Shown one piece after another: positions 20,605 to 32,936 of a stretch of DNA of 64,000 nt. The stretch lies in NCBI RefSeq assembly GCF_009931435.1, contig NZ_CP043414.1; one strand, given 5' to 3'. The position numbers and the translations under genes are program-made. Each line of letters opens with the position of its first letter. Position 1 is the first letter of the stretch. The notes under the pieces are model-generated. The model worked only from the letters and a program-made list of their open reading frames with translations. It searched no databases and had not been told where the DNA came from. This DNA comes from Escherichia coli. Its GTDB lineage: Bacteria; Pseudomonadota; Gammaproteobacteria; Enterobacterales; Enterobacteriaceae.

Positions 20605-20614
20605 GATTGATGGA

Positions 20615-21436
20615 ATGAAAAATAAGTGCCCACGAATTGCAGTAATAATGTCGGTTTATATTAATGATAAATTTAATGAGTTTAAAGAGGCTTTTGACAG
20701 TATTATTAATCAAACATACTCTAACTTTGTTTTCTTTATTTATGCCGATGGCAAGATAAATCCAGATATTGAAAGTTTTTTGCAAAATTATAATTCGCAA
20801 CATGTGATTTTCATTAGAAGTGAAAAAAATAAGGGATTAGCTTATGCTTTGAATAAATTAATATCAGTGGCGCTAGTTAATAATGAATTTGATTTTATTG
20901 CCAGAATGGATGCTGATGATATAAGTTTAGAAGATAGATTTCAACGACAAATAGATTTTTTTATGGCTAACCCTGAGTTAGATGTTGTTGGTGGGTTGTG
21001 TCAAGAGTTTGGTGGTGAGTCAGCAAGAGAAAAATGCAAGATCTATTTTACAGATGAAGCCATTAAAAACAATGCCTTTAAAAAATGTCCTTTCGTTCAT
21101 CCAACCGTGATGTTTAAATCGTCTGTATTTAATAACGGGATGCGATACCCTGAAAATCAGCCACTGACAGAAGATATGTGCTTATGGCTCGAGTTAATAT
21201 CCGCGAATAAAAAGTTTGCAAATATTGACTCCGTTCTTCTAAAGTACAGAATTAATGAGCAGACGCTAAAAAGAAGAAGAGGTTTGAATAAGGCTGTAAC
21301 CGAATTATCCACAAGATTGTATTACGCCAAGAAACTTAAAATGCTTAGCGTACGGAATTTGTTATATATATTAATCCATTTTGGTGTCAGAGTCCTTCCT
21401 TCAAATATATTTAAACTTGTACATAAGTTAAATTAA
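20615..21436 (+). CDS. O-antigen glycosyltransferase, GT2 family
   Basis: ORF 20522..21436, with the likely start (MKNKCPRIAVIMSVYIND) at 20615 just after ops; DADD motif (ARMDADDISLEDRF); AT-rich. Confidence 0.7.
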   Translation: MKNKCPRIAVIMSVYINDKFNEFKEAFDSIINQTYSNFVFFIYADGKINPDIESFLQNYNSQHVIFIRSEKNKGLAYALNKLISVALVNNEFDFIARMDADDISLEDRFQRQIDFFMANPELDVVGGLCQEFGGESAREKCKIYFTDEAIKNNAFKKCPFVHPTVMFKSSVFNNGMRYPENQPLTEDMCLWLELISANKKFANIDSVLLKYRINEQTLKRRRGLNKAVTELSTRLYYAKKLKMLSVRNLLYILIHFGVRVLPSNIFKLVHKLN

Positions 21437-21437
21437 A

Positions 21438-23204
21438 ATGAATAAAACTGTTTATACATATGATGTATGGGATACTATTTTAAAACGTCATTGTTTACCA
21501 TCATATACGTTAGAGGTTTCGTTGTACTGGCTACTTTTGTATCTTGGAAAACCTGAGAAACATAAGGATGTGTATAAAAAAGTAAAAGCACTGGAGAGTG
21601 ATTTTTTTAATCGAAAAGAAGAATATTTTATTGAAGAGCTTATTGTTGGGATATTAATTGAAAATAATTTAATGAATGGATTTTGCAATAACTCTGTGAC
21701 TGCTGCTTGGGAACAAATATATTATTTCGTAGAGAGAAATTGTACATATAAAAATAAAGAGGTTATAGAGTTAATTGGGAGTGACTATGGGGACAAATTA
21801 TTTATTTCTGATTTTTATACTGACTCCAGTTTCATAAAGAAATTGCTACACCACCACCAAGTATCGGTTTTAGATGGTGTGACGTCAGCTGAGTATGGCG
21901 TCAGTAAGCATATGGGTTCATTGTATGAAAAAATAGAACTATTGAAGCAAAGGAAATGGATCCATACTGGAGATAATGAATTAGCTGATATAAAAATGGC
22001 AAAGCGTGCAGGTGCCCAAGTTAGACTTATAAAATCCAAAAAGAAGAAAATAAATAAGTTAAAAATAAAAAATGACTATGAGCGGTTAGCATTTATTATT
22101 TTGTCCTTTAGCCTGTTTATATTAAAAACTTCCAGAAAGAAAAAGTGCAATAAGATCTACTTTTTTACAAGGGAGGGGGTTTTTTTCAAAAAAAACTTTG
22201 ATCTTCTACTAAACCAAATACCTAACATATTCCCATCTATAACTACGGAAATATTGCCAATCAGTCGAGTAGCCAGCTTAGCATTGAAGTTTAATGAGTC
22301 TGATGAATTTTTAGGATTTAATGATGCATTAACCCAGTATGGCTATGGAGTGTCTACGTTTCTTAGTTTCTTTCATCTTGATGATTGTTACTCCGAGCTC
22401 ACAACAAAGTATCATGATGTAAATGATTTATTATCTCACAGAAATGATCCTTTGGTAAAACAACTAATAAAAAGTATAGAGGATAAAAAAAAACGAACAG
22501 AAAATTTTCTTACATCCATTGAGTTCGATTCTGAGCCAAGTATCATCGTGGATATTGGTTGGCGGGGTAGCATCCAAGATAATTTAATGTCGCGGAAAAA
22601 TAATTATATTCAACATGGATGTTATCTCGGATTGTTTGATTTTTACCCAGGCCAGTCAGGTCAGAATAAATCATCTGTAATTTTTGATAACAACAGATTT
22701 AGACAAAAATGGACCATGAAAGGTGTAGCTTTTATGGAGACGGTTTTCAATGCTTTGGACGGAAGTGTTGTCGATTATGTAAACAATAAACCGAAAAGAA
22801 AAGAAAATTACGCTGAGATAGAAAATTCAAAACATTTAATAGTTATGCAAGATGCTATCATTGAGGAATTTATGAATCTATCTATTATGTTAAAAGAGGG
22901 AAAGTTAAATATCAATGATATTGAAAGATTAGCTATTGAAAGTTACAAAAAAATAGTAACTAACCCATCTAAAGAAATAGCTGATTTTTATGTTGGCAGT
23001 ATCCAAAATGAAAGCTTCGGTTTGAATGATTTTATCGACAAAGAATTTAACATTAGCGCAGTAGATGTTTTCCGAAGTTTTTTTTCTAAAAGTAAAAGAA
23101 ATGAAATAAGAATAAAATTGCATAGAAATGGATGGCGTGAGTCGATACTTAAATCCTCTAAAGTATCGCTGAGCGCAAAATTATGTTCACTTTTAATTAG
23201 ATAA
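21438..23204 (+). CDS. hypothetical 588-aa O-antigen cluster protein; HAD-like N-terminal region plus uncharacterised C-terminal domain
   Basis: Long AT-rich ORF; N-terminus YDVWDTIL and IHTGDNELADIKMAKRAGAQ loosely resemble HAD motifs I and III/IV; hydrophobic segment near residue 215; no family recognised for residues 230-588. Confidence 0.55.
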   Translation: MNKTVYTYDVWDTILKRHCLPSYTLEVSLYWLLLYLGKPEKHKDVYKKVKALESDFFNRKEEYFIEELIVGILIENNLMNGFCNNSVTAAWEQIYYFVERNCTYKNKEVIELIGSDYGDKLFISDFYTDSSFIKKLLHHHQVSVLDGVTSAEYGVSKHMGSLYEKIELLKQRKWIHTGDNELADIKMAKRAGAQVRLIKSKKKKINKLKIKNDYERLAFIILSFSLFILKTSRKKKCNKIYFFTREGVFFKKNFDLLLNQIPNIFPSITTEILPISRVASLALKFNESDEFLGFNDALTQYGYGVSTFLSFFHLDDCYSELTTKYHDVNDLLSHRNDPLVKQLIKSIEDKKKRTENFLTSIEFDSEPSIIVDIGWRGSIQDNLMSRKNNYIQHGCYLGLFDFYPGQSGQNKSSVIFDNNRFRQKWTMKGVAFMETVFNALDGSVVDYVNNKPKRKENYAEIENSKHLIVMQDAIIEEFMNLSIMLKEGKLNINDIERLAIESYKKIVTNPSKEIADFYVGSIQNESFGLNDFIDKEFNISAVDVFRSFFSKSKRNEIRIKLHRNGWRESILKSSKVSLSAKLCSLLIR

Positions 23205-23207
23205 AAT

Positions 23208-24080
23208 ATGAATATTTCAGTAATAATTTGTTGCTATAACTCAGAAAATAGAATCGTAAACACCCTTTTTCATCTTTCACAATGTGTATCTCTATCCAAG
23301 GGGTTAATTGACGAGATTATTCTTGTTGACAATAACTCATCTGATGAAACTGTTAAAACAGCTGAGGATTTTTGGCGTAATACGGGGGAGGAGCAAATCT
23401 TTAAAATTGTTTTTGAATCGATTCCGGGCCTTGTTCATGCTAGACGGCGAGGGCTGGACGAGTCCAAAAATGAGATTGTTGTTTTTTGTGATGATGATAA
23501 TTGGCTGGTACCATCTTATTTTACAAAACTAGAGAAATATTTTGAAAACAAACAAGTAGGCGCTGTCGGGGGACGCGGTATTCCTATTGCTAATACCGTT
23601 ATTCCTGAGTGGTTTTTTGAGAATCTGGATGCATATGCATGTTCTGCACAAACTTCTAACATGTTGTATGGTGCTAGCTTGGCTATTCGGTCTAGTATCT
23701 TAAAAAAATTTTATACGGATGCTTTATCAGTAAAGCTAAAGGGTAGAACAAAAGACAGTCTGGATTCTGGGGAAGATAACTTATTGTGTAATTTTGTCAA
23801 AAAACAAGGATACACTCTGATACCTGACAATACACCATTTTGCCATTTCATGGAAAGCAAGCGATTGGATGTCGATTATCTATATAAACTGGCTGAATCA
23901 TTTGGAAAAGCAACGGCATCAATGAAAAACAATTCCTTCACCACCGATTATGTATATTTGACAGCAAAAATGTTATTAGCTATATCTAGGATCTTCTCTA
24001 AAAAAAATAAAAAGATATATTTAAAACGTGAGATTTCCTTTCTCAGAGGTTATTTGAGGTTTAGAAAGGAATCGAAGTAA
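23208..24080 (+). CDS. O-antigen glycosyltransferase, GT2 family
   Basis: 290-aa ORF; classic GT2 N-terminus MNISVIICCYNSENRI ... ILVDNNSSDET ... FCDDDN. Confidence 0.75.
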   Translation: MNISVIICCYNSENRIVNTLFHLSQCVSLSKGLIDEIILVDNNSSDETVKTAEDFWRNTGEEQIFKIVFESIPGLVHARRRGLDESKNEIVVFCDDDNWLVPSYFTKLEKYFENKQVGAVGGRGIPIANTVIPEWFFENLDAYACSAQTSNMLYGASLAIRSSILKKFYTDALSVKLKGRTKDSLDSGEDNLLCNFVKKQGYTLIPDNTPFCHFMESKRLDVDYLYKLAESFGKATASMKNNSFTTDYVYLTAKMLLAISRIFSKKNKKIYLKREISFLRGYLRFRKESK

Positions 24081-25258
24081 TGAGAGGGGGAATGCTTGTA
24101 ATTGCGTGGTATTCTATTTTTCTGTTGATTTCAGCTACGGGCATGACCGGTCTAAATAAGCTGAGTACTGAAGCTATTCTGTGCTATATTGCATTTTTAT
24201 TCTGTTTTTTCTTTGGCATGATGTTAGGTGGTGTTTCGCTCCCAAACGGAATGAAAATGTTGCAACAGGAGCAAAAGATAAAGAAAAGGCATGCTTCTGC
24301 CATAGTTCTAATTTATTGCTTTTTTATTTTTTATTCTTTAATTGCTCTTTTAAATATATATTATTTCAATAAGGTTGATCTATCATCTTATAGACAAGCA
24401 TTTTTTGATGGTTCAAGAGATAATGTTAAATACTTCTATGGCGTGTTTGGCTTTTACTTCTATTATTTACTTAGCCTGTTAGTATTCGCCTTAGTTCCTT
24501 ATACTATTATAACGAACAGCAAAAAGACTATTTCATTATGTTTCTTTGCCTTGCTGCTATACGATATTATTTTCCTTTCAAGAACTGGTGTTTATTACTT
24601 TATATTATCTTATATAGTATCGAGTATTCTTCTCAAGAAAGGAATCAAGAAAATTATAATTGTAGGGATGGTTGCCTTATTATTCTCATTGATAATGAGT
24701 TACACAAGGGATATGAAGAGTGACATCATTGGTACATTATTTAGCTCAATTATAAATTATCATATAGCTCCGTTTGTCTTGTTTGATGAAAATATAATAT
24801 CAAATCATTTGATTAAATATAATGGGGCTGGCTTGGCATCGTTGGGGATATATAATATCATTTTTTATCCCATTGATTCGTCTATCATGTCATCAATAAA
24901 CGATTTTAGAGCACAGTTGAATGAATTCTATGATTTGGGAGTAAATCGTTATTTGCCATATAATGCCTATTATACTTCTTTGGGTGGGGTATATATAGAT
25001 AGCGGCCTGATTGGTAGCATGATGGTTAGTTTTATGACTGGTTTTATTATTGTCGGAATCGAGAAGAGTGCTTTTAAATCAACTAAGTTCTTAGTCTCTT
25101 CTGTGTTTTTTACTACATTATGTATGGAATCTATATTTTCCCCAATAACACTAAATATTTTTGCCTTTACAATAATTGTCTACTTAGTTGTTTTGATGGT
25201 CCTTAAATATGAAAATAGCGATGATAATACCATCTTTAAAAAATACCGCGCCAAATAA
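24080..25258 (+). CDS. wzy: putative O-antigen polymerase
   Basis: 392-aa highly hydrophobic, Phe/Ile/Tyr-rich multi-TM ORF inside the O-antigen cluster; assignment by elimination (wzx is the other polytopic protein). Confidence 0.55.
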   Translation: MRGGMLVIAWYSIFLLISATGMTGLNKLSTEAILCYIAFLFCFFFGMMLGGVSLPNGMKMLQQEQKIKKRHASAIVLIYCFFIFYSLIALLNIYYFNKVDLSSYRQAFFDGSRDNVKYFYGVFGFYFYYLLSLLVFALVPYTIITNSKKTISLCFFALLLYDIIFLSRTGVYYFILSYIVSSILLKKGIKKIIIVGMVALLFSLIMSYTRDMKSDIIGTLFSSIINYHIAPFVLFDENIISNHLIKYNGAGLASLGIYNIIFYPIDSSIMSSINDFRAQLNEFYDLGVNRYLPYNAYYTSLGGVYIDSGLIGSMMVSFMTGFIIVGIEKSAFKSTKFLVSSVFFTTLCMESIFSPITLNIFAFTIIVYLVVLMVLKYENSDDNTIFKKYRAK

Positions 25259-26234
25259 TATAGCCCTTTCAATATGTGAAGGGGCAAGGAAGCATGGTGT
25301 CAATATAGATATTTATTATCTTGATGAAATTGTAGAGTTGGATATAGACGAGTCAGAACTGAATATAAATAGGCTAAATGATAGAACCATTTTAAACAGT
25401 TATGATATTGTTCACTCTCATGGCTTAAGACCCGATGTTATTAATTGTAAGACCAGCAAAAATGTCATTAATGTAAGTACGCTTCATAGTTTTATTTTAG
25501 ATGATCTTAAGAATAAATATGGAATAAAAGGATATCTGATCGCTTTTGCTTGGCTTAAATTATTAAAGCGATTTGATTCATGTATTGCAATTAGTGAGGC
25601 GACTAAACGGTTTTATGTTAAACATGGTCTTAAATGCCACCATATATATAATGGAATCGACTTTCCTGACATCGAATTATATCAAGATAACTCAAGGCTA
25701 AATAACGGCAAAATAAATATAGTATCGATCGCGCATCTGGAAAAAATAAAAGGCTTAGAGCAACTCCTATATCTAGCCGCGGAGCGAGAAGAGTTCCATG
25801 TTCATATAATTGGTGAAGGAACTTACCGTGGGAAATTAACAAATATTATTGATAAGTTTGATTTATCTCAGCGTGTAACTTTGCATGGATATATATCAAA
25901 TGCGAGTTCTATGTTGGGGAAATTTGATGTTTATGTGCAACCATCTAAAAGTGAGGGGTTTGGCATTGCAGTCATTGAAGCTCTTGTAAATAAAATCCCA
26001 ACAGTTTGCTCAGACATTGAAGTGTTCAGAGAGTTATTTGGCTCAGGAGAAGTTGAATTTTTCAAGTTAGACGATATTAATTCACTTTACGATGCAATTT
26101 CAAGTGCATTAACCAAGACAGATATGTCTCGAGATGCAAGTGCCACAGCGATAAGCCAAAAATTTTCTTCAGAAGTGATGTCATTGAACTATTTAAGTTG
26201 GTATAAAAAATTATATGAAGAAAGAAATTTATAA
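25209..26234 (+). CDS. O-antigen glycosyltransferase, GT4 family
   Basis: 341-aa ORF; GT4 E-x7-E region (SKSEGFGIAVIEALVNKIPTVCSDIEVFRELF). Confidence 0.75.
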   Translation: MKIAMIIPSLKNTAPNNIALSICEGARKHGVNIDIYYLDEIVELDIDESELNINRLNDRTILNSYDIVHSHGLRPDVINCKTSKNVINVSTLHSFILDDLKNKYGIKGYLIAFAWLKLLKRFDSCIAISEATKRFYVKHGLKCHHIYNGIDFPDIELYQDNSRLNNGKINIVSIAHLEKIKGLEQLLYLAAEREEFHVHIIGEGTYRGKLTNIIDKFDLSQRVTLHGYISNASSMLGKFDVYVQPSKSEGFGIAVIEALVNKIPTVCSDIEVFRELFGSGEVEFFKLDDINSLYDAISSALTKTDMSRDASATAISQKFSSEVMSLNYLSWYKKLYEERNL

Positions 26235-27393
26235 ATATGGCACAATAATATTATGCTATGGAATTAACTTTATACTACCTATTCTTTTCTTTAAAGAAAT
26301 AAGTTTAATATTATCTCCAATAGTATTATCATCATTTTTCTTTGTTTTGGCATTGCTAATGTATTGTCAATTCATTGTTGAATACGGGTTGCAAATATCA
26401 TTATTAAGAAAGTTAAATGAAAATAAGAGTGATTTAAGTCGGCTTTTATCTACTATTCTTGGACTAAAAGTAATACTATTCGTCCTATGCGCAGTATTCA
26501 TTTATTGTATTTTGCTATATAATAATGAAGTTATATTTTTTATACTTGTTTTCATTCTGCTAGGAAACGTATTCTCATGCCAGTTCCTCTATCAAGTAGT
26601 TGATCAGCTCCATTTTTTTTATGTATTAAATTCGCTTGTTAAGCTAATTTTCATACCCCTCATTTTTATCAATGATAATTATATCTATCTGATGATATGT
26701 TATAGTTGTTTCAATATCCTACCTAACTTAGCTGCACTTGCTTATTTTTTATATAAGAATAAAGTTAAGGTTGTAAAAGTTCCTGCTTGTGAAATTTATA
26801 ATTTATCTAAGGAATGTTTTAGCTATTTTATCTCGAATATTTCGATAACATTATACACTAATTTTTATCAGATCTTATTAGGCATTATATCGCCCGCTTA
26901 TCTGGCCGCGTATGCATTAAGTGACAAAATTATTAGGGGGATCGTGTCAGGGAATTATGTGTTTATACAGATAGTACAAGTACAATACTTAAATGATGAA
27001 TCAAAGTTCATCAATGGTACATGGAAAACGATTGTTTCATTATTATTACTGGGGGGGATGGAGTTTTTATTTATTTTCTTTGGAGCGGATTTTTTCTCTC
27101 GTTATTTATTCCCTACAATATCTTTACTGCCAATTTTTCTAAAACTAATGTCATTGCTAATTGTTGTTATCTTGTTGAGTAACTTTTTTGCAATGGTTTA
27201 TCTTCCGTGTTCAGGCAATACTTTATTCCTCTCACGTGTTCTGATTTTTGTTTCTATTGTGTCCGTAGTAGTTGCCCCGATACTAATATGGCTCTATGCA
27301 GGTTATGGTGCAGTCATTTCCGCTATATTTTCAGAGTTATTAGTTCTGATTTTATGCTATGGTTTATATTTGAAATTAAAACACAAACTCTAA
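26215..27393 (+). CDS. wzx: putative O-antigen flippase
   Basis: 392-aa polytopic membrane ORF, about 12 predicted TM segments, AT-rich. Confidence 0.65.
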   Translation: MKKEIYKYGTIILCYGINFILPILFFKEISLILSPIVLSSFFFVLALLMYCQFIVEYGLQISLLRKLNENKSDLSRLLSTILGLKVILFVLCAVFIYCILLYNNEVIFFILVFILLGNVFSCQFLYQVVDQLHFFYVLNSLVKLIFIPLIFINDNYIYLMICYSCFNILPNLAALAYFLYKNKVKVVKVPACEIYNLSKECFSYFISNISITLYTNFYQILLGIISPAYLAAYALSDKIIRGIVSGNYVFIQIVQVQYLNDESKFINGTWKTIVSLLLLGGMEFLFIFFGADFFSRYLFPTISLLPIFLKLMSLLIVVILLSNFFAMVYLPCSGNTLFLSRVLIFVSIVSVVVAPILIWLYAGYGAVISAIFSELLVLILCYGLYLKLKHKL

Positions 27394-27415
27394 CTATTAA
27401 CGTAGAATAATTAAA

Positions 27416-27856
27416 ATGAATTTATTGATTGTTTTTTGCTTTTATATTTCGGTTCTGCGTAGTAATAAAATAAGTGTATTTAAATTAATCACTATCACAA
27501 CTGTCTTGATTGTATATGTATTCTGGCTAATAGCCGACAGTTTTACTGGCGTTGGGATAAATGATTCAGTTTATTTCCATATGTTAATGCCGCATGAGGG
27601 GGCATCGGTTGAAAATTTAACATATTATGGATTTCTGATTGTAAGCCTTGTTATTTCAATTTTCTTGATTGCTTATGTTTCTTGGAAAAAGAAGCATAAT
27701 AGAGGATTAAGTAAAAATTACTCTTTTTACGTACTCTTCGCTATTGTATTAGTTACTCCATTTATGCGTAATTTCCTGGGGTCAATTAACAATTTAATTT
27801 CCGAACAGTTTTCTACTGAAGATATAAGTAAAGAGTATGTAATCAATAGTAGGTGA
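27416..27856 (+). pseudogene. 3'-truncated membrane-protein gene, last gene of the O-antigen cluster, interrupted by IS1
   Basis: 146-codon ORF with N-terminal TM helices; its stop codon TGA (27854-27856) lies inside the IS1 left terminal repeat. Confidence 0.6.
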
Positions 27857-27906
27857 TGCTGCCAACTTACTGATTTAGTGTATGATGGTGTTTTTGAGGT
27901 GCTCCA

Positions 27907-28182
27907 GTGGCTTCTGTTTCTATCAGCTGTCCCTCCTGTTCAGCTACTGACGGGGTGGTGCGTAACGGCAAAAGCACCGCCGGACATCAGCGCTATCTCT
28001 GCTCTCACTGCCGTAAAACATGGCAACTGCAGTTCACTTACACCGCTTCTCAACCCGGTACGCACCAGAAAATCATTGATATGGCCATGAATGGCGTTGG
28101 ATGCCGGGCAACCGCCCGCATTATGGGCGTTGGCCTCAACACGATTTTCCGCCATTTAAAAAACTCAGGCCGCAGTCGGTAA
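27907..28182 (+). CDS. insA: IS1 InsA
   Basis: 91-aa [26 protein letters not shown]..., zinc-finger/HTH InsA. Confidence 0.9.
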
Positions 28183-28604
28183 CCTCGCGCATACAGCCGG
28201 GCAGTGACGTCATCGTCTGCGCGGAAATGGACGAACAGTGGGGCTATGTCGGGGCTAAATCGCGCCAGCGCTGGCTGTTTTACGCGTATGACAGGCTCCG
28301 GAAGACGGTTGTTGCGCACGTATTCGGTGAACGCACTATGGCGACGCTGGGGCGTCTTATGAGCCTGCTGTCACCCTTTGACGTGGTGATATGGATGACG
28401 GATGGCTGGCCGCTGTATGAATCCCGCCTGAAGGGAAAGCTGCACGTAATCAGCAAGCGATATACGCAGCGAATTGAGCGGCATAACCTGAATCTGAGGC
28501 AGCACCTGGCACGGCTGGGACGGAAGTCGCTGTCGTTCTCAAAATCGGTGGAGCTGCATGACAAAGTCATCGGGCATTATCTGAACATAAAACACTATCA
28601 ATAA
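28101..28604 (+). CDS. insB: IS1 InsB (expressed as InsAB' by -1 frameshift)
   Basis: 167-aa ORF overlapping insA in the -1 frame, ending ...HYLNIKHYQ. Confidence 0.9.
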
Positions 28605-28990
28605 GTTGGAGTCATTACCGGTTACGAGTAGTGGCATCTGGATTTGATGTGTGTAACATTAATGAGTCGTTAATATTAGCTAGAGTTGGTGATAATATGT
28701 TGGCTAGGCGAAAAGGGCTGAGGTATATAAAAAGTGAATTCCAACTTTATCGGCTAAAAGTTAAACTTGGTTTGCAGTCACATATATCTGGATTCTGCAT
28801 TTTGTTAGTAAGAAGCATTCCGCGATTACTCCCTCTAAAGGTCTTAAAAATTATTTACCAATATATTCGGAAGTAATTATATAATAATTCTGAAGATTGC
28901 ACTCTTATTTTTTCTTAGTTGTATCTTTGTATGTTAACATTACGTTTAAACCGAACCGCTAAGACGGTAATTTCGTGACAGGAGTAAACA

Positions 28991-30397
28991 ATGTCAAAGC
29001 AACAGATCGGCGTAGTCGGTATGGCAGTGATGGGGCGCAACCTTGCGCTCAACATCGAAAGCCGTGGTTATACCGTCTCTATTTTCAACCGTTCCCGTGA
29101 AAAGACGGAAGAAGTGATTGCCGAAAATCCAGGCAAGAAACTGGTTCCTTACTATACGGTGAAAGAGTTTGTTGAATCTCTGGAAACGCCTCGTCGCATC
29201 CTGTTAATGGTGAAAGCAGGTGCTGGCACGGATGCTGCTATTGATTCCATCAAGCCGTACCTCGATAAAGGTGACATCATCATTGATGGTGGTAATACAT
29301 TCTTCCAGGACACCATTCGCCGTAACCGTGAGCTTTCTGCCGAAGGCTTTAACTTCATCGGTACCGGTGTTTCCGGTGGTGAAGAGGGCGCGCTGAAAGG
29401 GCCTTCCATCATGCCTGGTGGGCAGAAAGAAGCCTATGAACTGGTTGCGCCGATCCTGACCAAAATCGCAGCCGTTGCTGAAGATGGCGAACCGTGCGTT
29501 ACCTATATTGGTACCGATGGCGCAGGTCACTATGTGAAGATGGTTCACAACGGTATTGAATATGGCGATATGCAGCTGATTGCTGAAGCCTATTCTCTGC
29601 TTAAAGGTGGCCTGAACCTCACTAACGAAGAACTGGCGCAGACCTTTACCGAGTGGAATAACGGTGAACTGAGTAGCTACCTGATCGACATCACCAAAGA
29701 CATCTTCACCAAAAAAGATGAAGACGGTAACTACCTGGTTGATGTGATTCTGGATGAAGCAGCAAACAAAGGTACCGGTAAATGGACCAGCCAGAGCGCG
29801 CTGGATCTCGGCGAACCGCTGTCGCTGATTACCGAGTCTGTGTTTGCACGTTATATCTCTTCTCTGAAAGAGCAGCGTGTTGCCGCATCTAAAGTTCTCT
29901 CTGGCCCGCAAGCGCAGCCAGCTGGCGACAAAGGTGAGTTCATCGAAAAAGTTCGTCGTGCTCTGTATCTGGGCAAAATCGTTTCTTACGCTCAGGGCTT
30001 CTCTCAGCTGCGTGCTGCGTCTGAAGAGTACAACTGGGATCTGAACTACGGCGAAATCGCGAAAATTTTCCGTGCTGGCTGCATCATCCGTGCGCAGTTC
30101 CTGCAGAAAATCACCGATGCTTATGCCGAAAATCCGCAGATCGCTAACCTGCTGCTGGCTCCGTACTTCAAGCAAATTGCCGATGACTACCAGCAGGCGC
30201 TGCGTGATGTCGTTGCTTATGCAGTACAGAACGGTATCCCGGTTCCGACCTTCGCCGCTGCGGTTGCCTATTACGATAGCTACCGTGCCGCTGTTCTGCC
30301 TGCGAACCTGATCCAGGCACAGCGTGACTATTTCGGTGCACATACTTATAAGCGCATTGATAAAGAAGGTGTGTTCCATACTGAATGGCTGGATTAA
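28991..30397 (+). CDS. gnd: 6-phosphogluconate dehydrogenase, decarboxylating
   Basis: 468-aa [30 protein letters not shown]...; recognised as Gnd. Confidence 0.97.
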
Positions 30398-30423
30398 TCT
30401 GATTTAACCAACAATAAAATTGA

Positions 30424-30455
30424 GGCCCGGCGTATATTGCACCGGGCTTTTTTTT
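30424..30455 (+). terminator. rho-independent terminator downstream of gnd
   Basis: Hairpin gcccggcg-tatattg-caccgggc followed by an 8-T run. Confidence 0.6.
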
Positions 30456-30485
30456 GCCAATTATCTTATAGACTAAATTTCACTG

Positions 30486-30502
30486 CTTAATATTAACTTA
30501 AT
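30486..30502 (+). promoter_or_regulatory. candidate PmrA (BasR) box upstream of ugd
   Basis: cttaat-attaa-cttaat, matching the YTTAAK-N5-YTTAAK direct repeat, about 145 bp upstream of the ugd start. Confidence 0.5.
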
Positions 30503-30636
30503 AAATATCAGCTATTCTTATAAAGAAAATCTGAATTGTTTTTCGTTGCGTTGACCATCTGACAACGTAGCGTTAAAACTTTTAGCTCTAATCAGGATGC
30601 TAAAAACATCATGATTCACAGTTAAGTTAATTCTGA

Positions 30637-31812
<1,176 letters not shown>

Positions 31813-31955
31813 CATCCTGTTATCAGGGCGATTTTCGCCCTGATTCTCTCATGTTCCCTTTGTAATAATTCATTGTTTTTATCATTTATCCTATAGCATT
31901 CATGGCGATTATCGCTAAACTATGGCGACTTAAAATTATTTCGTCCGTTAGGGTA

Positions 31956-32936
31956 ATGATGAGAGTAGAAAATAATAATGTTTCTGGGCAAAACCATGAC
32001 CCGGAACAGATTGATTTGATTGATTTACTGGTGCAGTTGTGGCGTGGCAAGATGACAATTATCATCTCTGTCATTGTTGCTATTGCCCTGGCTATAGGGT
32101 ATCTGGCCGTTGCCAAAGAAAAGTGGACTTCCACAGCTATCGTTACTCAACCTGATGTGGGACAAATCGCTGGTTATAACAATGCCATAAATGTGATTTA
32201 TGGTTCGGCAGCGCCGAAAGTGTCTGAGATCCAGTCGATGTTAATTGGTCGTTTCAGCACGACATTTTCTGCATTAGCAGAAACGCTGGATAATCAGGAA
32301 GAACCTGAAAAACTGACCATTGAGCCTACCGTTAAAAATCAGTCATTACCTTTAGCGGTTTCTTATGTGGGTGAAACACCTGAAGGTGCGCAGAAACAGC
32401 TGGCGCAGTATATCCAGCAAGTTGACGACCAGGTAAATGAAGAACTGGAACAAGACCTGAAAGACAACATCGCGCTGCGTATGAAAAACTTGCAGGATTC
32501 TCTGAAGACGCAGGAAGTGGTCGCTCAAGAACAGAAAGATCTGCGTATCCGTCAGATTCAGGAAGCGTTGCAGTATGCGAATCAGGCGCAGGTGACAAAG
32601 CCGCAGATTCAACAGACACAGGACGTAACCCAGGATACTATGTTCCTTTTGGGGAGCGAAGCGCTGGAGTCGATGATTAAGCACGAAGCGACCCGTCCGT
32701 TGGTGTTCTCATCAAACTACTATCAGACTCGTCAAAACCTGCTGGATATCGACAATCTTGACGTTGATAAACTTGATATTCATGCTTACCGCTATGTAAT
32801 GAAACCGACGTTACCTATTCGTCGCGATAGCCCGAAGAAAGCAATTACCTTGATTCTGGCTGTGCTGCTGGGCGGTATGGTGGGCGCGGGGATTGTGTTG
32901 GGGCGTAACGCACTGCGTAATTACAACGCGAAGTAA
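31956..32936 (+). CDS. wzzB: O-antigen chain-length determinant (polysaccharide co-polymerase)
   Basis: ORF 31902..32936; likely start at the MMRVENNN methionines (31956/31959); N- and C-terminal TM segments flanking a coiled-coil-rich periplasmic domain. Confidence 0.9.
   Translation: MMRVENNNVSGQNHDPEQIDLIDLLVQLWRGKMTIIISVIVAIALAIGYLAVAKEKWTSTAIVTQPDVGQIAGYNNAINVIYGSAAPKVSEIQSMLIGRFSTTFSALAETLDNQEEPEKLTIEPTVKNQSLPLAVSYVGETPEGAQKQLAQYIQQVDDQVNEELEQDLKDNIALRMKNLQDSLKTQEVVAQEQKDLRIRQIQEALQYANQAQVTKPQIQQTQDVTQDTMFLLGSEALESMIKHEATRPLVFSSNYYQTRQNLLDIDNLDVDKLDIHAYRYVMKPTLPIRRDSPKKAITLILAVLLGGMVGAGIVLGRNALRNYNAK

Follow-up and report, generated by a model that had tools for sequence, protein, structure and literature searches.

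A conserved PmrA/BasR box as the probable activator site of the ugd promoter in Escherichia coli

The product of ugd (pmrE) is the source of the precursor for the aminoarabinose modification of lipid A, which is a main route to polymyxin and colistin resistance, and the link between this gene and the BasRS (PmrAB) sensor belongs to the textbook picture of the regulon. In the window, i.e., the whole 64-kb stretch of E. coli DNA that was analysed, which contains colanic acid (wca) genes, an O-antigen cluster, gnd, ugd, wzzB and the his operon, a direct repeat in front of ugd had been taken in an earlier note for a consensus PmrA (BasR) box. The question raised by this locus is whether the repeat is a genuine BasR site and, if so, what share it has in the transcription of ugd. 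As outlined in the following sections, the 17-mer is very probably the activator site for phosphorylated BasR (BasR~P, PmrA) at a ugd promoter termed P1 and orthologous to the PmrA site of Salmonella ugd.

The repeat, its target gene and its conservation

As read directly from the sequence, CTTAAT-ATTAA-CTTAAT occupies positions 30486-30502 on the plus strand inside the gnd-ugd intergenic region and fits the direct repeat YTTAAK-N5-YTTAAK with its 11-bp periodicity without a single mismatch, so that the repeat described in the earlier note was confirmed letter for letter. It has the orientation of the ugd coding strand, and its distance to the ugd ATG at 30646 is 160 nt from the start and 143 nt from the end of the repeat, the latter value being in agreement with the distance of about 145 bp given before. 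It is composed of a promoter-distal half-site CTTAAT (30486-30491, plus strand), found by pattern match and consisting of invariant columns, a 5-nt spacer ATTAA (30492-30496, plus strand), which differs among relatives while the hexamers are fixed, and a promoter-proximal half-site CTTAAT (30497-30502, plus strand) in the place of the -35 element.

On the upstream side lies gnd (28991-30397, plus strand), coding for 6-phosphogluconate dehydrogenase (NCBIfam equivalogs NF006765/TIGR00873, 770 bits). It is followed by a strong intrinsic terminator (30425-30456, plus strand) with a G + C-rich hairpin GCCCGG...CCGGGC at 30425-30447 and a run of eight T residues to 30456; stem and T-run are conserved in all aligned Enterobacteriaceae loci, the scan called the same hairpin on the minus strand, and the terminator isolates the ugd promoter from upstream transcription. 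The downstream gene (30646-31812, plus strand) had been named ugd (pmrE), and this assignment holds, as its product matches the NCBIfam equivalog NF011631 for UDP-glucose 6-dehydrogenase over its full length with 890 bits (cut-off 757) and as the gene is called ugd in the annotation of all matching E. coli genomes. With ugd downstream, the gene under control is a member of the lipid A/LPS modification regulon, and the supply of UDP-glucuronate by Ugd for L-Ara4N, likewise part of the earlier note, is stated in PMC2919465 and in the preprint 10.1101/2025.08.18.670855.

With respect to the distribution of the box, a scan of a genome collection with Ugd yielded 80 loci, Salmonella being absent, and Salmonella loci were added by protein search and exact-protein look-up. 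Gnd-ugd synteny was retained in about 20 Enterobacteriaceae among the 80 Ugd loci, and of the scanned loci only those of E. coli, E. albertii and three Citrobacter genomes contain the box, invariably at -157 to -160 relative to the start codon, with ATTAA, ACTAA or CTTTA as spacer and with unchanged hexamers. In the Enterobacter, Kluyvera, Kosakonia, Lelliottia, Pluralibacter and Superficieibacter loci no PmrA box was found upstream of ugd, and none is present upstream of manC-manB-ugd in K. pneumoniae (PMC2919465). The identical 17-mer CTTAATATTAACTTAAT is found at the homologous position in all four Salmonella enterica loci. The box of E. fergusonii reads CTTAAT-GTTAA-CTTAAG, its second half-site being within the consensus, and that of C. 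rodentium CTTAAT-AATAA-CTCCAT, where the first half-site is kept and the second degenerate. C. rodentium is not known to have an arn operon, and, if it indeed has none, the degenerate second half-site would fit relaxed selection.

In a non-redundant alignment of eight sequences from Escherichia, Salmonella and Citrobacter, all six columns of the first hexamer are invariant, and the second hexamer has a mean identity of 0.94, departing from CTTAAT only in E. fergusonii and C. rodentium. In contrast, only two of the five spacer columns and none of the ten columns of the gap following the box (30503-30512) are invariant. Within E. coli, both hexamers are kept in 12 out of 12 sampled genomes with the same type of intergenic region, including K-12, O157:H7, O104:H4 and Nissle, the sole change inside the 17-mer being a T-to-C exchange in the spacer. 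Judging from these alignments, the half-sites are under purifying selection across the three genera. It is this comparative evidence which is decisive for the box, and with an identical 17-mer at the homologous place in Salmonella enterica ugd and with conserved half-sites the identity of the element as a PmrA/BasR box, as proposed in the earlier note, is supported.

Likeness to known PmrA sites and the geometry of promoter P1

The PmrA box of Salmonella enterica ugd (pmrE/pagA) has not only the 17-mer in common with the box in the window but also its orientation and its location between gnd and ugd about 160 nt before the ATG, and further downstream the two loci share a TAnnnT hexamer and a TAAAAC promoter, whereas conservation between them is poor in the 10-nt gap and 5' of the box. 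The Salmonella box is reportedly the one described by Aguirre et al. 2000 and by Mouslim and Groisman 2003. In PMC10927774, the definition of the YTTAAK repeat with the Salmonella ugd promoter is credited to Aguirre 2000, and going by such secondary citations and by the consensus, the 17-mer probably corresponds to the protected region of Salmonella ugd; a search of full-text literature with the 17-mer gave no match. The Salmonella promoter carries sites for PmrA, PhoP and RcsB (PMC3335776; PMC2681069), and the PhoP site precedes the RcsB-dependent start by 145 nt, its distance from the PmrA box being about 65 bp (PMC2681069; PMC3335776). In contrast to the PhoP site reported there, the E. coli intergenic region contains no PhoP-box-like sequence, the best matches to (T/G)GTTTA-N5-(T/G)GTTTA having mismatches at 3-4 of 12 positions. 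The element is thus already known, being the E. coli orthologue of an experimentally studied PmrA site, and its presence in front of ugd is an ordinary finding.

In K-12, the boxes of arnB, eptA and pmrR are YTTAAK-type direct repeats with a 5-nt spacer like that of ugd, and in the upstream regions compared (locus L102, 3622-3910; locus L103, 1006-1116 and 4592-4694) an xAxxxT hexamer begins exactly 10 nt behind each of them: TAAAAT behind CTTAAG-GTTAA-GTTAAT at arnB, GAGCAT behind CTTAAG-GTTGG-CTTAAT at eptA, and CATACT behind CTTAAG-GTTCA-CTTAAT at pmrR. The ugd box differs from these three in being a perfect CTTAAT repeat with a spacer of A and T only, whereas the others start with CTTAAG and have G-rich spacers of the GGTTAA type, and in its distance from the start codon, which is 160 nt as opposed to 61-97 nt, implying a long leader for ugd. 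As a side note, the arnB box has G in place of Y at the first base of its second half-site.

By analogy, TATTCT (30513-30518, plus strand), 10 nt 3' of the box, would be the -10 hexamer of the BasR-dependent promoter P1. No aligned species departs from T30513, A30514 or T30518, and it is because of this invariant TAnnnT and of a spacing equal to that of arnB, eptA and pmrR that TATTCT was preferred to the adjacent TATAAA (30519-30524), which was dropped for lack of conservation, the corresponding hexamer being TAATGA in Salmonella and GATAAA, GGTGAA or GGTAAA elsewhere. The comparison with known PmrA sites suggested in the earlier note is thus borne out twice, by the identity of the 17-mer with that of Salmonella ugd and by a distance between box and -10 hexamer equal to that of three K-12 promoters. 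From the position of the hexamer, transcription from P1 might start near 30524-30526, so that the leader would comprise about 120 nt.

This geometry fits the published architecture, in which the pmra-box replaces the -35 element. At pbgP, ugd and pmrCAB, an overlap of the pmra-box with the -35 element has been described (PMC10570014), and for the ugd promoter the same is stated in PMC3335776. The pmra-box of K. pneumoniae pbgP, which likewise takes the place of the -35 element and has an 11-bp periodicity, is the same as the ugd box over its first 10 nt (CTTAATATTA) and differs in its second half-site, which is a weak CCTAAG, ugd having two strong CTTAAT halves. For pbgP a crystal structure (4S05) and a cryo-EM activation complex are available (PMC3973317, PMC10570014), and the head-to-tail mode of binding can be understood from the structures of PmrA on CTTAAT-ATTAT-CCTAAG, in which the AA bases are read by N188 (PMC3973317, PMC10570014).

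A putative second promoter, the ugd leader and the proposed course of regulation

A putative second sigma-70-type promoter, P2 (30551-30579, plus strand), lies 65 nt further downstream and consists of TTGACC (30551-30556) and TAAAAC (30574-30579) separated by 17 nt. In the eight-sequence alignment, five of the six columns of its -10 hexamer are invariant, and TTGACA-17-TAAAAA is found upstream of ugd in most Enterobacter, Kosakonia, Lelliottia, Pluralibacter and Superficieibacter loci, all of which are without a PmrA box. Its start may be located near 30586, which fits the published distances between PhoP site, RcsB-dependent start and PmrA box in Salmonella. A rule-based promoter scan called neither P1 nor P2, its rules requiring a T at the last position of the -10 hexamer or a -35 match.

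Between the two promoters there is a conserved block, AAAGAAAATCTGAAT (30522-30536, plus strand), with a mean identity of 0.88 and 6 of 15 columns invariant, and strings like GAAnnnnTCTGAAT can be found in Lelliottia, Pluralibacter and Enterobacter loci. The block might be the site of another regulator, e.g., RcsB, to the consensus sequences of which it is a weak match only; a search for an Rcs box in the E. coli gnd-ugd intergenic region gave no convincing site.

In the leader, a hairpin at 30593-30617 (plus strand) is formed by the stem TCAGGATG/CATCATGA and the loop CTAAAAA. RNAalifold predicted eight pairs, kept in all eight sequences, with one-sided G-U changes only and a variable internal mismatch, and compensatory changes were not seen among these eight sequences. 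An Rfam search of the ugd leader assigned it to no family, giving only sub-threshold hits, which fell on the gnd terminator. Directly 5' of the ugd ATG follows a near-invariant block with a Shine-Dalgarno sequence, TAAGTTAATTCTGAGAG (30623-30645, plus strand), and 15 of 18 columns are invariant across the three genera in the block before the ATG.

Taken together with the binding of PmrA, the replacement of the -35 element and the signals sensed, which are all known from the literature, this anatomy suggests the following course of events. BasS (PmrB) would sense Fe3+, Al3+ or mild acid and phosphorylate BasR, a dimer of which would bind head-to-tail to the two CTTAAT half-sites one helical turn apart. 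With the promoter-proximal half-site in the place of the -35 element, BasR~P would help sigma-70 RNA polymerase to use the weak -10 hexamer TATTCT, and transcription from near 30525 would yield ugd mRNA whose leader is about 120 nt long. The supply of UDP-glucuronate would thereby be raised in step with the arn operon for the aminoarabinose modification of lipid A, and the BasR-independent P2 would provide for a basal and probably also an Rcs-dependent level of expression, serving colanic acid and other polysaccharides. The exact -10 hexamer and start site, the division of roles between P1 and P2 and the quantitative share of the box in E. coli are all to be read as predictions. Mechanistically this contains nothing new, and what is gained is a validated motif call together with a clean anatomy of box, putative -10 hexamer, second promoter and conserved leader.

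Alternative readings and variation of the ugd promoter in E. coli

The functional literature on BasR control of ugd in E. coli is mixed. According to PMC9396075, which refers to Ogasawara 2012, E. coli BasR~P binds to the ugd, eptA and arn promoters. In lines of E. coli B adapted to iron, expression of ugd rises together with that of eptA, arnABC, basR, pmrR and waaH (PMC13405929), and in E. coli exposed to serum it falls together with that of arn, basRS, ais and yjdB; the regulator assignments taken from databases in this study of 2014 list no regulator for ugd (PMC4145685). On the other hand, it was found in a 2026 preprint that phosphate starvation induces Pugd-lacZ in MG1655, the ugd box of which is identical to that in the window, more than 10-fold, and that this induction is unchanged in pmrA and pmrB deletion mutants, where arn induction is abolished, and about 30% lower in phoB and phoR mutants (10.1101/2025.08.18.670855). 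This result contradicts neither the binding of BasR nor control by Fe3+, but it reveals strong BasR-independent inputs to ugd, which plausibly act via P2, and, the induction being independent of PmrAB, it leaves room for a lack of BasR-dependent regulation of ugd in E. coli.

Accordingly, the box could be a conserved and bindable BasR site whose role is minor or confined to certain conditions, ugd being transcribed mostly from P2 and under Rcs, and partly under PhoBR. In addition to the behaviour of Pugd-lacZ in K-12 under phosphate starvation, this reading can point to P2, which has a near-consensus -35 element and is the most widely conserved part of the region in Enterobacteriaceae, and to the E. 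coli genomes without a detectable promoter region and the sampled divergent ugd alleles without a consensus box (see below). However, hexamers that stay nearly invariant over Escherichia, Salmonella and Citrobacter beside freely varying neighbours point to ongoing selection, E. coli transcriptomes show ugd to be co-regulated with arn, eptA and basR, and the preprint covers one condition and one plasmid or fusion fragment, the limits of which are absent from its main text. A merely minor or conditional role is therefore regarded as rather unlikely.

It is less probable still, and on the whole improbable, that the repeat is mainly bound by another protein, be it PhoB, QseB as a paralogue of BasR, or H-NS on AT-rich DNA. 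The region is indeed AT-rich, and Pugd depends partially on PhoBR (10.1101/2025.08.18.670855), but a pho box, which consists of two 7-mers of the CTGTCAT type repeated every 11 bp and located 10 nt upstream of the -10 hexamer, is matched in the intergenic region at best with mismatches at 6 of 14 positions, and the PhoP-box matches with their 3-4 mismatches in 12 are also poor. The hexamers, in turn, are the exact PmrA consensus and resemble the other BasR boxes of K-12, and H-NS would not account for an invariance that is specific to the hexamers and goes along with a variable spacer.

As for chance, YTTAAK-N5-YTTAAK has a single exact match in the 64-kb window when both strands are searched, 0.19 matches being expected and at least one being found in 17 of 100 shuffles, so that the count over the whole window, taken alone, is not significant; relaxed searches for YTTAAK repeats in the window gave ordinary background only. 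In a local test with 100,000 dinucleotide shuffles of the 248-nt gnd-ugd intergenic region, which has a G + C content of 32%, the pattern appeared on the plus strand in only 0.41% and a perfect CTTAAT-N5-CTTAAT in 0.02% of the shuffles. A fortuitous match in AT-rich intergenic DNA without any part in regulation, which the whole-window shuffles and the low G + C content might have suggested, is effectively refuted by the conservation pattern, i.e., by hexamers conserved in three genera at the same distance from the ATG and a 17-mer identical in Salmonella, and is further at odds with the local shuffles and with a spacing to a conserved -10 hexamer common to three other BasR promoters, its probability being negligible.

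A sequence similar to the intergenic region of the window (30398-30645) was not detected in 1,689 of 5,426 complete E. coli genomes (about 31%). Allele classes of ugd were counted as records, of which there were 5,443 in 5,403 genomes, and in terms of identity to the ugd of the window 3,590 records have at least 95%, 755 have 80-90% and 1,070 have 60-80%, the share of divergent alleles (60-90% identity) being similar to the share of genomes without the promoter region. In five sampled divergent loci (L088, L089 and L091-L093), the region upstream of ugd resembles that of Kluyvera or Klebsiella and contains no consensus PmrA box, and two others (L090 and L099) keep the consensus box. In some of the box-less divergent loci ugd follows rfbK/manB or rfbC and not gnd. 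Three loci (L088, L089 and L091) have a look-alike, TATAAT-TTATG-CTTAAA, at the same -160 position with 2-3 mismatches and with a consensus TATAAT 7 nt later, which might represent either the remnant of a box or a constitutive promoter.

The divergent ugd alleles have apparently been imported, and it is conceivable, albeit somewhat doubtful, that BasRS control of ugd is polymorphic within E. coli. Lineages without the box may have uncoupled the supply of UDP-glucuronate from the BasRS signal, and, if true, inducible aminoarabinose modification and tolerance to polymyxin could change as a result. The replacement of the promoter together with the ugd allele in a large minority of E. coli genomes might therefore be a point for further investigation.

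With respect to the neighbouring genes, wzz is reported to be PmrA-regulated in Salmonella, and no PmrA-box-like sequence with at most one mismatch was found in the ugd-wzzB intergenic region of the window (31813-31958) or of Salmonella (e.g., L082, 3168-3309). The closest complete genome, that of CFSAN061769, has an identity of 99.6% to the window from gnd to the his region but differs in its O-antigen gene cluster, window positions 20608-28976 being unmatched. Whereas wzzB (31959-32936) is intact in the window, wzzB of CFSAN061769 has a nonsense codon at residue 192.
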